From Escherichia coli (GTDB lineage Bacteria; Pseudomonadota; Gammaproteobacteria; Enterobacterales; Enterobacteriaceae), in the NCBI RefSeq assembly GCF_016026235.1, contig NZ_CP065613.1: DNA of 64,000 nt; one strand, given 5' to 3'. Below, piece after piece: positions 31,311 through 34,300 of the stretch. Position numbers: made by a program. Within the stretch, counting starts at the first letter, position 1; every line of letters starts with the position of its first letter.

Positions 31311-34300
31311 TAATAGCAAAACCTGGGCCGGATAAGGTGCTTGCGCCGCATCCGGCATAAAACAGGTTGTCATTATCTGAAAGGGGCGAAAGCCCCTCTG
31401 ATTATCGGGTTTAGCGCGCTATTGCCTGGCTACCGCGCCTGGAATCAGTCTTGCCGATGTTAACTACGTACCGCAAAACACCAGCGACGCGCCAGCCATT
31501 CCATCTGCTGCGCTGCAACAACTCACCTGGACACCGGTCGATCAATCTAAAACCCAGACCACCCAACTGGCGACCGGCGGCCAACAACTGAACGTTCCCG
31601 GCATCAGTGGTCCGGTTGCTGCGTACAGCGTCCCGGCAAACATTGGCGAACTGACCCTGACGCTGACCAGCGAAGTGAACAAACAAACCAGCGTTTTTGC
31701 GCCGAACGTGCTGATTCTTGATCAGAACATGATCCCATCAGCCTTCTTCCCCAGCAGTTATTTCACCTACCAGGAACCAGGCGTGATGAGTGCAGATCGG
31801 CTGGAAGGCGTTATGCGCCTGACACCGGCGTTGGGGCAGCAAAAACTTTATGTTCTGGTCTTTACCACGGAAAAAGATCTCCAGCAGACGACCCAACTGC
31901 TCGACCCGGCTAAAGCCTATGCCAAGGGCGTCGGTAACTCGATCCCGGATATCCCCGATCCGGTTGCTCGTCATACCACCGATGGCTTACTGAAACTGAA
32001 AGTGAAAACGAACTCCAGCTCCAGCGTGTTGGTAGGACCTTTATTTGGTTCTTCCGCTCCAGCTCCGGTTACGGTAGGTAACACGGCGGCACCAGCTGTG
32101 GCTGCACCCGCTCCGGCACCGGTGAAGAAAAGCGAGCCGATGCTCAACGACACGGAAAGTTATTTTAATACCGCGATCAAAAACGCTGTCGCGAAAGGTG
32201 ATGTTGATAAGGCGTTAAAACTGCTTGATGAAGCTGAACGCCTGGGATCGACATCTGCCCGTTCCACCTTTATCAGCAGTGTAAAAGGCAAGGGGTAATT
32301 ACGCCCCACAGTGCTGATTTTGCAACAACTGGTGCGTCTCCTGGCGCACCTTTTTTTATGCTTCCTTCCTGGGATATGAGCGATTTTTTATAGTAACTCA
32401 CTTCTTCTTCACTAAGAATATCCATTATCTCAATGCCTTATCAGAGATTCTTTTCCTTTCGCCGGTAGTGTCTGGACATTCAGGCTACTTTTCCAGGTTA
32501 TTTTATTTCTGTTATGCAGAGGTTTTATGATAAGTCATATCCTAAATTCTGGCGGCAATAACTCTTTGATGAAACATGATGTGGTGCAAGGAAATAATAT
32601 AGTAGATCTTGATTTACTACGTAATTTAAATGGGGTGCCAAGTTTAAACAGAGATAACTTTATTTATATCAGCAATATTTTTTCAAATATAAAACAACGG
32701 AACGAAAAAATCATGCAATAAATATGTTTCGTGAAGTCTCAATCAGTAATGATACTATAAGTGTAAAATTCTACAGAAATGAAAAAAATTGAATGCGCAT
32801 GCAATTTTTTGATGGATAAAGATGCGCAGGGGTATATCGACCTGTCTGATTTGGATTTAACAAGTTGTCATTTTAAAGGTGACGTTATATCGAAGGTGTC
32901 TTTTTTATCATCAAATCTACAACATGTAACATTCGAATGTAAAGAAATTGGGGATTGCAATTTTACTACTGCAATAGTTGATAATGTCATATTTAGATGT
33001 CGACGTTTACACAATGTGATTTTTATCAAAGCGAGTGGTGAATGTGTCGATTTCAGCAAAAATATTCTTGATACAGTTGACTTCTCGCAGAGTCAACTTG
33101 GTCATAGTAATTTTCGCGAATGTCAGATTAGAAATTCAAACTTCGATAATTGTTATCTTTACGCTTCGCACTTCACCAGAGCAGAGTTTCTGTCTGCCAA
33201 AGAAATATCATTTATTAAATCGAATTTGACAGCTGTTATGTTTGATCATGTGCGAATGTCGACAGGGAATTTTAAAGATTGCATTACAGAACAATTGGAA
33301 TTAACTATTGATTATTCAGATATATTTTGGAATGAAGATCTCGATGGTTATATCAATAACATTATAAAAATGATTGATACATTGCCAGATAATGCAATGA
33401 TATTGAAATCCGTTCTGGCCGTAAAACTGGTGATGCAATTAAAAATACTTAATATTGTTAATAAAAACTTTATTGAGAATATGAAGAAAATATTTAGCCA
33501 TTGTCCTTATATAAAAGATCCCATTATACGCAGTTATATCCATTCTGATGAAGATAACAAGTTCGATGATTTTATGCGTCAACATCGATTCAGTGAGGTG
33601 AATTTCGATACCCAACAGATGATCGATTTTATTAACAGATTTAATACGAATAAATGGCTAATTGATAAAAATAACAATTTTTTTATCCAACTTATCGATC
33701 AGGCCTTACGATCAACGGATGATATGATCAAAGCAAATGTTTGGCATCTTTATAAAGAGTGGATTCGTAGTGATGATGTTTCACCTCTATTTATAGAAAT
33801 TGAAGATAATTTAAGAACCTTTAACACGAATGAATTAACACGAAAGGATAATATCTTTATCCTGTTCTCCTCAGTCGATGATGGGCCAGTTATGGTGGTA
33901 AGCTCCCAGCGCTGATATGACTTTCCGTGTCAAACCGGAATCTCTAATTTTGACGATTTTCTTTTTAGGTTTAATTCCCTGAGGGCGACGTAGCAGTAAA
34001 TCCGACGGTGAATCACGCTGATATTCGCGGGTTGGATACCGCATTACAGAGGTCCGTCATATGAGCCTGCCACTTTCTTACGTCGCGAATCAGCTTTGTT
34101 CCGCCGTCGCCAAGCGCTAACGTGGGTTACTCTTGTACCGGGCTACGTCGCCTTCAGGGAACTGGTTATTCTCATTTTTTATTTGTGACATTGTGGTTGT
34201 TGTGCGACAGATATTGCTATTCGGCCCATATCCCAGATAAAACCCGCCAGCTCACGTGCAACAGCAACAATTGTAATATTGACATTCTTTCCTTTGGCCT

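Follow-up and report, generated by a model that had tools for sequence, protein, structure and literature searches.

Organization of the lamB-malM region

The window, i.e. the whole stretch of 64,000 nt analysed here from an Escherichia coli chromosome (contig NZ_CP065613.1), contains the malK-lamB-malM operon together with malE. It was compared with FDAARGOS_943, its nearest complete genome, and with the strains O157 NE92 and K-12 J53 in a four-sequence alignment (A1). The upstream gene lamB is annotated at the syntenic position in FDAARGOS_943, J53 and O157, and alignment with the annotated malM of the three genomes identified a homologous coding sequence at the syntenic site 3′ of lamB. The features of the region are as follows.

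27231-28421, minus strand: malE, ATA (28419-28421) in place of the ATG start codon, Shine-Dalgarno (SD) sequence kept (comparison with relatives)
29973-31313, plus strand: lamB (maltoporin), intact, 446 aa, 5′ of malM in malK-lamB-malM (ORF; Pfam LamB on the identical protein)
31327-31356, plus strand: REP-type palindrome GCCGGATAAGGTGCTTGCGCCGCATCCGGC between lamB and malM (long stem in the predicted fold)
31382-31397, plus strand: hairpin AGGGGC-GAAA-GCCCCT, 6-bp stem and GAAA loop (in the minimum-free-energy fold)
31402-32298, plus strand: malM remnant with no usable start (translation; Pfam MalM PF07148 on the 290-aa product)
31402-31433, plus strand: former intergenic part of the malM open frame
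31426-31436, plus strand: deletion junction with hybrid repeat CTGGCTACCGC (alignment A1; two BLAST segments overlapping over 31426-31436)
31434-31455, plus strand: residual signal-peptide c-region APGISLA
31456-32295, plus strand: mature MalM, 280 aa, unchanged (identical to FDAARGOS_943 MalM)
31675-32298, plus strand: GTG-start ORF of 207 aa, without signal peptide or SD sequence (ORF scan)
32296-32298, plus strand: malM stop codon
32331-32350, plus strand: intact intrinsic terminator of the malK-lamB-malM operon (8-bp stem with 6 G-C pairs, then TTTTTTT)
Junction-spanning 33-mer: GCGCTATTGCCTGGCTACCGCGCCTGGAATCAG, the marker sequence of the malM Δ86 allele

The open frame of malM is preceded by a TGA codon (31399-31401) and is translated as LSGLARYCLATAPGISLA followed by DVNYVPQ... 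of the mature protein. ORF scan and translation agree with the initial annotation that this frame holds no ATG, GTG or TTG codon before the GTG at 31675, where the 207-aa ORF begins, and no in-frame start codon had been overlooked. The intact malM gene is likewise devoid of these codons from Met3 to the same GTG; being equally poor in starts after Met3, it leaves the lost 5′ end as the sole anomaly of the window allele. No GGAG-like motif occurs in the 20 nt 5′ of GTG 31675 (CCCTGACGCTGACCAGCGAA), and judging from this context the 207-aa ORF would not be expected to be expressed.

The initial annotation had also reported a perfect hairpin at the expected malM start, extending to about 31399, and had considered a remodelled 5′ end. 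The stem-loop itself is real and ends at 31397, whereas its location was misjudged: in intact alleles 66 nt separate its 3′ end from the malM ATG further downstream. It is invariant in the window, FDAARGOS_943, O157 NE92 and K-12 J53, thus also in strains with an intact malM, and lies outside the altered segment. The hairpin adjoins the REP element, and both are normal lamB-malM intergenic sequence; one REP copy is present in the window lineage and two are present in K-12 (alignment A1). An Rfam search gave a match to the REP-derived naRNA4 over 31326-31403, which at 33.2 bits is below the gathering score of 59.5. As an intrinsic terminator the hairpin was rejected too, since it is followed by CTGATTATCGGGTTT without a T-run and received no call in the terminator scan.

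An 86-bp deletion at the 5′ end of malM

Alignment A1 revealed one clean gap of 86 bp in the window malM against the three intact alleles (columns 237-322), with otherwise invariant flanks; the K-12 derivative J53 has an intact 5′ end. Counted from the malM ATG, the deletion runs from -30 to +56. It takes with it the SD sequence GAGGTG and the ATG, as well as codons 1-19 (MKMNKSLIALCLSAGLLAS), where the signal peptide has its n- and h-regions; malM has thereby lost both its ribosome-binding site and its canonical start. The signal peptide was judged by sequence inspection (Lys of the n-region, hydrophobic core, SLA cleavage site): residues 1-19 of the Sec signal peptide MKMNKSLIALCLSAGLLASAPGISLA are missing, the hydrophobic core SLIALCLSAGLLA lies wholly within the deleted segment, and APGISLA alone is left. 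The break is located between 31433/31434 and 31436/31437, with CGC as a 3-nt ambiguity. When the 86 bp were removed in silico from FDAARGOS_943, the resulting sequence matched the window with 0 mismatches across 3,431 nt. A single deletion thus accounts for all that the initial annotation had ascribed to small indels, and the string LIIGFSALL, read there as a frameshifted hydrophobic core, is encoded by conserved intergenic DNA that is invariant across the four aligned strains.

In the intact allele, the endpoints coincide with two imperfect direct repeats, CTGGCTACCGC (at -38) and CTGGCAAGCGC (at +48), which are 86 bp apart and agree in 9 of their 11 nucleotides (for a single alignment, P is about 1.3e-4). 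Exact homology at the junction amounts to only 3 bp (CGC). Replication slippage or microhomology-mediated joining between these 11-nt repeats is a plausible origin of the deletion. Short-repeat deletions of the slipped-strand or microhomology-mediated type are classic at the lacI deletion hotspots of E. coli. The malM Δ86 allele resembles them in having endpoints in short direct repeats, one retained hybrid copy and a length equal to the 86-bp spacing; it differs in that the repeats are imperfect (9/11, with 3 bp of exact homology) and in that the event has been seen once.

In comparison with intact malM of K-12 and O157 (PF07148, the last gene of malK-lamB-malM), the locus, operon context, REP element, hairpin and terminator are common to the window, whereas the window allele is 86 bp shorter (SD sequence, ATG, codons 1-19) and has neither a canonical start nor an export signal. 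In the window allele, intergenic DNA devoid of a start signal now runs in frame into the remaining APGISLA and mature coding sequence; the REP element and the hairpin, as ordinary intergenic features, had no part in the event. Since SD sequence, ATG, n-region and hydrophobic core are all deleted, periplasmic MalM should no longer be producible, and we infer that malM expression is absent in the clone, i.e. the group of genomes sharing the deletion. Transcription may still pass through the region, which would then form an untranslated 3′ end of the lamB mRNA up to the intact terminator.

Further lesions in maltose uptake and lineage context

The deletion does not stand alone. The malE ATG>ATA change accompanies it in every clone member checked, and with O157 as outgroup for polarisation both events fall on the branch leading to the window. 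The search recovered no genome with malE ATA and an intact malM by which the two events could be ordered. MalE also carries E348K (27380), a polymorphism met elsewhere; as a third disabling lesion it was rejected, since an unrelated lineage whose operon is intact and whose malE starts with ATG has the same residue.

The sister genomes carry lesions of their own. FDAARGOS_943 has a -1 frameshift at codon 156 of malF, situated in a homopolymer and possibly an error, and GCA_901482675.2 has a 24-bp in-frame malF deletion (Δ422-429) adjoining the EAA loop. Hence each of three sister branches has a maltose transport gene lesion of its own, with lamB and malK intact in all of them. Among the SNPs of the window branch, 6 of 14 fall within 21.7-28.4 kb, and the share of the mal region in branch events is estimated at about 4/15 in 12% of the window, which is not statistically compelling alone. 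The polarised SNPs are mostly G:C>A:T (17/20), of which 14 read as C>T and 3 as G>A on the plus strand. Recent mutations ordinarily show an AT-biased spectrum that is asymmetric between the replication strands; the observed spectrum was judged compatible with this, and a mutator or mutagenesis as its source was dismissed.

Concerning the lineage, FDAARGOS_943 harbors a pINV-type plasmid with ipaH9.8, ospG, ospC2, sepA, virK and phoC, and its lineage is therefore considered to be EIEC/Shigella-like; no genes of the mxi-spa-ipa entry region are annotated in 149,000 of the 155,369 bp of this plasmid. The window and FDAARGOS_943 share 99.95% identity and an ISSso6 insertion, which suggests that the window's own clone may be EIEC as well. 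The chromosomal region bears ISSso6, IS1 and IS5 insertions as well as other pseudogenes, the nearby ones being an IS-interrupted gene of the SopA family and, in the sister, frameshifted malF and espL4.

Reductive evolution in Shigella and EIEC involves the spread of IS elements along with small deletions and frameshifts that affect catabolic and transport genes. The window lineage resembles it in its many IS copies, neighbouring pseudogenes, lesions in a sugar-uptake regulon and the pINV-type plasmid of the sister. In contrast to such decay in general, the malM allele is limited to one clone and is attributed to a short, probably microhomology-based deletion and not to an IS element. The clone in which the deletion is fixed probably belongs to an EIEC/Shigella-like lineage that is gaining IS elements and pseudogenes and whose maltose uptake genes were struck repeatedly, with relaxed selection as the presumed cause of the malM loss.

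An alternative cause of fixation is positive selection to shut the maltose system in this invasive lineage, with malM Δ86 as one of the selected hits. The distinct lesions in three sister branches (malE ATG>ATA with malM Δ86, the malF frameshift at codon 156, and malF Δ422-429) and the clustering of the branch SNPs speak for such a convergent, possibly adaptive, inactivation of mal uptake in the EIEC group. Relaxed selection in an IS-rich, pseudogene-filled lineage, however, also yields convergent decay; the numbers are small, one malF lesion may be an error, and the intact lamB and malK genes do not fit a selected shutdown. Moreover, MalM is a periplasmic protein with no known function (PMC11745164), so that no benefit of its loss can be named. 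Overall we regard adaptive loss as unlikely, and it bears on the cause of fixation, not on the identity of the feature as a malM pseudogene.

Non-canonical initiation

In the annotation of the clone, PGAP calls a 290-aa MalM from CTG 31426-31428 and a 396-aa MalE from the ATA codon, and NCBI records (EFK2890087.1 and others, UPI00068E7568) carry the 290-aa protein as ‘maltose operon protein MalM’, not as a pseudogene. Genuine non-canonical starts exist, such as the AUU of infC. The malM CTG and the malE ATA are odd starts of similar appearance; unlike infC-type genes, they arose as lesions within a short branch and are not conserved, the relatives and outgroups all have ATG, and the CTG lacks an SD sequence.

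A still functional malM, translated from CTG 31426 or another near-cognate codon, is nevertheless worth weighing: CTG is an allowed start in table 11, the mature coding sequence shows no further damage, and a trace of initiation, at CTG 31426 or at another site, is conceivable. Against this, no SD-like motif is found within 20 nt 5′ of any near-cognate codon, CTG 31426 included, and initiation at AUA or CUG reaches only about 1-2% of that at AUG (range 0.02-3%) even behind a good ribosome-binding site (bioRxiv 10.1101/063800). The product of the CTG would begin with MATAPGISLA, followed by DV of the mature protein, and with neither a positively charged n-region nor a hydrophobic core it would not enter Sec export, whereas MalM is periplasmic (PMC11745164). 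The undamaged coding region is explained equally well by a recent deletion. In a collection of 15 billion proteins, there were no products starting at GTG 31675, GTG 31708 or ATG 31729 and no 290-aa malM product bearing a leading Leu. A functional malM is thus highly improbable.

Distribution of the allele

The malM 5′ region (431-nt query) was matched by 5,412 of 5,426 complete RefSeq E. coli genomes, and coverage was at least 80% in 5,404 of the 5,426, which indicates that they retain the 5′ region. All 40 matches sampled across the whole ranking were broken into two or three segments and extended over 515-689 bp, as against 431 nt in the query. The 60-nt junction was found in one piece in none of the 5,426 complete genomes; it also had no match among the GTDB species representatives, a search that is uninformative with one genome per species. 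The malM 5′ end is intact in FDAARGOS_943, GCA_901482675.2, O157 and K-12.

The exact junction is present in GCA_031665325.1, GCA_900449985.1, GCA_021506135.1, GCA_008180225.1 and GCA_001907395.1; in all, about 25 contigs from no fewer than five assemblies carry it. Clone members differ slightly from each other, e.g. by a malK SNP at 29338 in GCA_031665325.1, and the window has private 1-nt differences in homopolymer runs at 35052 and 61687 which may be sequencing errors. While the homopolymer differences and the lack of the allele in every complete RefSeq genome could hint at a sequencing or assembly artefact or at a lesion acquired by a single stock strain in the laboratory, this is barely credible, as the same junction recurs in separately submitted assemblies from different technologies, the clone members are not identical, and loss of 86 bp from unique, non-repetitive sequence is atypical of assembler errors. 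Its presence in independent assemblies makes the junction a marker of the clone.

The lesion is derived in comparison with close relatives and the outgroup and is heritable in independent genomes; malM is therefore classed as a pseudogene, as the initial annotation had already considered. We found no description of the malM Δ86 allele in the literature.

Implications

Taken together, malM in this clone is very probably a recent pseudogene that arose by one 86-bp deletion, likely through slippage or microhomology, within a decaying maltose uptake system. On its own, the loss of malM is of little weight: the gene is dispensable, its pseudogene is confined to one clone, and gene decay in this lineage is already known. 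The PGAP models mask both the malM and the malE lesion, so that pan-genome and pseudogene surveys would score both genes as intact. The 86-bp junction, absent from 5,426 complete genomes, provides a clean molecular marker of the clone, and its members represent natural MalM-minus strains for work on MalM function. Furthermore, the independent mal lesions in three sister branches offer a small example, open to testing, of maltose uptake being lost convergently in an invasive E. coli lineage. Should the doubtful adaptive explanation be true, mal would be a candidate pathoadaptive (anti-virulence) locus, and MalM would be linked to the fate of the transporter.

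Loss of the malM start region

The reading frame of mature MalM opens after a TGA, reads LSGLARYCLATAPGISLA-DVNYVPQNTSDAPAIP... in translation and runs to its stop codon near the end of the operon. The main features of the region are:

31313, end of lamB
31382-31397, stem-loop AGGGGC-GAAA-GCCCCT
31399-31401, TGA preceding the malM frame
31675, GTG, first ATG/GTG/TTG codon in the frame (207-aa ORF)
32296-32298, stop codon of malM
32331-32350, operon terminator, intact (terminator scan)

The lack of any ATG, GTG or TTG upstream of position 31675, already reported in the initial annotation, was borne out by a mechanical ORF list and a codon-by-codon scan. 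A megablast search with window positions 31290-31720 (431 nt) matched 5,412 of 5,426 complete E. coli genomes, and all 40 listed records, sampled over the whole ranking, matched in two to three pieces spanning 515-689 bp. Since these matches are split and longer than the query, sequence must be missing from the window. In an alignment with FDAARGOS_943 (the nearest complete genome), an O157:H7 strain and J53, the derivative through which K-12 was compared, a single clean 86-nt gap with otherwise invariant flanks was found instead of the small indels supposed earlier. Removal of these 86 bp from FDAARGOS_943 in silico reproduced the window with 0 mismatches in 3,431 nt, and the part encoding mature MalM is identical in both genomes.

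The lost segment, CGCTGAGCTCCAGATTTTGAGGTGAAAACAATGAAAATGAATAAAAGTCTCATCGCCCTCTGTTTATCAGCAGGGTTACTGGCAAG in the intact allele, covers positions -30 to +56, counted from the annotated malM ATG. With it went the Shine-Dalgarno sequence GAGGTG, the ATG and, from the precursor MKMNKSLIALCLSAGLLASAPGISLA-DV, codons 1-19 for the lysine-containing n-region and the entire hydrophobic core; all that is left is the c-region APGISLA followed by the mature protein.

The stem-loop had been thought to occupy the place of the start codon, and an adjacent reading, LIIGFSALL, to be a remnant of the signal-peptide core. The perfect stem-loop is indeed present, but it is unchanged in the three intact comparators, ends 66 nt 5′ of the malM ATG in the intact allele and has replaced nothing; the LIIGFSALL stretch is likewise unchanged in all three. 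Both can be regarded as ordinary lamB-malM intergenic sequence adjoining a REP element. When the intergenic RNA is folded, this hairpin and the REP stem both appear in the predicted minimum-free-energy structure, and an Rfam search of the spacer returned only a sub-threshold match to the REP-derived naRNA4 (33.2 bits; gathering score 59.5) at 31326-31403 on both strands. A role of the hairpin as terminator was rejected, as no U-tract follows the stem and the terminator scan made no call there. The spacer carries one REP copy in the window lineage and in O157; K-12 has about 91 extra bases with a second REP (alignment columns 12-102).

Origin and distribution of the deletion

Slipped-strand and microhomology-mediated deletions classically have their endpoints in short repeats, of which one hybrid copy is kept. 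Here the two endpoints lie, in the intact allele, within imperfect 11-nt direct repeats, CTGGCTACCGC (-38) and CTGGCAAGCGC (+48), which are spaced exactly 86 bp apart and agree at 9 of 11 positions (chance probability at a given alignment approximately 1.3e-4), with an exact CGC in common at the junction. The window retains a single hybrid copy at 31426-31436. Deletion between these repeats by either process would account for the allele and is plausible, although the exact junction homology of just 3 bp falls short of proof.

None of the 5,426 complete RefSeq genomes contains the 60-nt junction sequence uninterrupted, the best matches there all spanning 146 bp (60 + 86), and a 33-nt junction pattern was not found in GTDB species representatives (one genome per species). 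Clone members were traced through exact-protein look-ups. The window LamB led to GCA_031665325.1 and GCA_900449985.1, in each of which the 'MalM' gene call stops 86 bp early and the exact junction was confirmed. The 290-aa product deposited for the deleted allele occurs on 25 contigs, and contigs of this type were read in GCA_021506135.1 with 19 similar drafts, GCA_008180225.1 and GCA_001907395.1. Several are 100% identical to the window, while others differ slightly; one assembly, for instance, has a SNP in malK at 29338. The exact junction in multiple, non-identical assemblies rules out both an assembly artefact and a lesion peculiar to one laboratory stock; the deletion is thus heritable and marks a circulating clone.

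Coding capacity of the remnant

Near-cognate codons in the open frame include CTG at 31426, ATC at 31444, ATT at 31498, CTG at 31513 and several others, and the codon scan found no GGAG-like motif in the 20 nt 5′ of any of them. Initiation from AUA, AUC, AUU and CUG in E. coli reaches about 1-2% of AUG, with a range of 0.02-3% across constructs even with engineered ribosome binding sites (bioRxiv 10.1101/063800). The predicted product would begin MATAPGISLA-DV, without n-region and hydrophobic core, and MalM is a periplasmic protein, its function still given as unknown in 2024 (PMC11745164). From the missing Shine-Dalgarno sequences, the weak non-AUG initiation and the loss of the export signal we conclude that functional MalM would not be made in this clone, and we infer that the malM region now forms an untranslated tail at the 3′ end of the lamB mRNA.

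malM in the window passes tests of homology and synteny and fails those of start signal and signal peptide. As the lesion is derived and heritable, the gene is an inactivated pseudogene by definition, as the initial annotation had considered. NCBI and UniParc nevertheless record its product as an intact protein: the 290-aa 'maltose operon protein MalM' (EFK2890087.1, EFK6635346.1, EFK6690763.1, EHD3364218.1; UPI00068E7568) spans 31426-32298, with the CTG at 31426, which lacks a Shine-Dalgarno sequence, translated as Met.

Further lesions in maltose genes

A second start-codon lesion affects malE (27231-28421, - strand): a C>T change at 28419 (+ strand) has turned the ATG at 28419-28421 into ATA, while the Shine-Dalgarno sequence is retained. 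The next in-frame ATG is Met18 within the signal peptide, hence the 379-aa call in one annotation (STM02520.1), whereas PGAP-type calls start at the ATA and give 396 aa. Polarised with O157, both lesions fall on the window branch; the ATA is present in every deletion contig checked (L007, L014-L017, L033, L036), and no genotype with one lesion only was recovered among the contigs searched. Comparison with the sister and O157 shows the malE change E348K (GAA>AAA, codon 348, window 27380) to be derived as well. Because Lys348 is also found in an unrelated lineage (L034, L035; 99.0% identity) whose malE begins with ATG and whose operon is intact, the change is probably a recurrent polymorphism that is tolerated.

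malF is intact in the window. In FDAARGOS_943 it carries a -1 frameshift at codon 156 in an A5/T5 run (equivalent to window 26610), and in the second sister genome, GCA_901482675.2, an in-frame 24-bp deletion (equivalent to 25791-25814) takes out LIKPLTPL, residues 422-429 of MalF, which immediately follow the EAA loop. A SNP at 20802 joins the window clone with FDAARGOS_943 to the exclusion of GCA_901482675.2. Maltose transport genes have therefore been hit independently on each of the three branches.

Lineage context

FDAARGOS_943 is 99.95% identical to the window over 64 kb. Besides the 86-bp deletion, 24 substitutions, three 1-nt indels and two IS insertions separate them. The latter, a 914-bp IS5-family element in qor (~47400) and a 767-bp IS1 between aphA and tyrB (~52400), are found in FDAARGOS_943 only, so IS activity has continued since the split. 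Annotation of this region in FDAARGOS_943 comprises IS1, IS5-family and ISSso6 insertions, a split SopA-family gene, and frameshifted malF and espL4. Its 155-kb plasmid harbors ipaH9.8, ospG, ospC2, sepA, virK, capU and phoC amid dense IS debris; identified by this gene content as a pINV-type invasion plasmid, it indicates an EIEC/Shigella-like lineage. The near-identity and a common ISSso6 insertion suggest the same status for the window's own clone.

This IS110-family element (~33921-35430), present in the window, FDAARGOS_943 and GCA_901482675.2, interrupts a SopA-family (yjbI-like) gene behind its 378th codon, with the flanks at 32779-33915 and from 35431 onward. The N-terminal part of that gene (32000-33920) shows 94.2% identity to the O157 allele versus ~98-99% for flanking genes and is either a divergent allele or a segment that has recombined. 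A window-private 1-nt deletion in a G run at 35052 (G5 in other clone members) splits the transposase ORF into 269 and 164 aa and could be genuine or reflect a sequencing error, and the same alternatives are possible for an intergenic homopolymer at 61687 (T7 versus T8 in FDAARGOS_943).

Among the 20 SNPs polarised with O157, 17 are G:C>A:T, with a strong strand bias (14 C>T versus 3 G>A on the + strand). Six of the 14 window-branch changes cluster within 21735-28419. The base-change pattern itself is probably no more than the usual AT-biased, replication-asymmetric one of very recent mutations.

Implications

Reductive evolution in Shigella and EIEC is a well-known phenomenon, as short-repeat deletions are a well-known class, and the malM inactivation belongs to both. 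The allele is accordingly not a new kind of thing, yet it appears to be undescribed, as no published description was found in the literature. Its junction provides a clean clone marker, and the annotation of non-canonical starts in public databases masks the lesions in both malM and malE. The hits on three branches fit genome decay under relaxed selection; positive selection behind the repeated loss is a possible alternative. The lineage offers a small, testable case of convergent mal gene loss.
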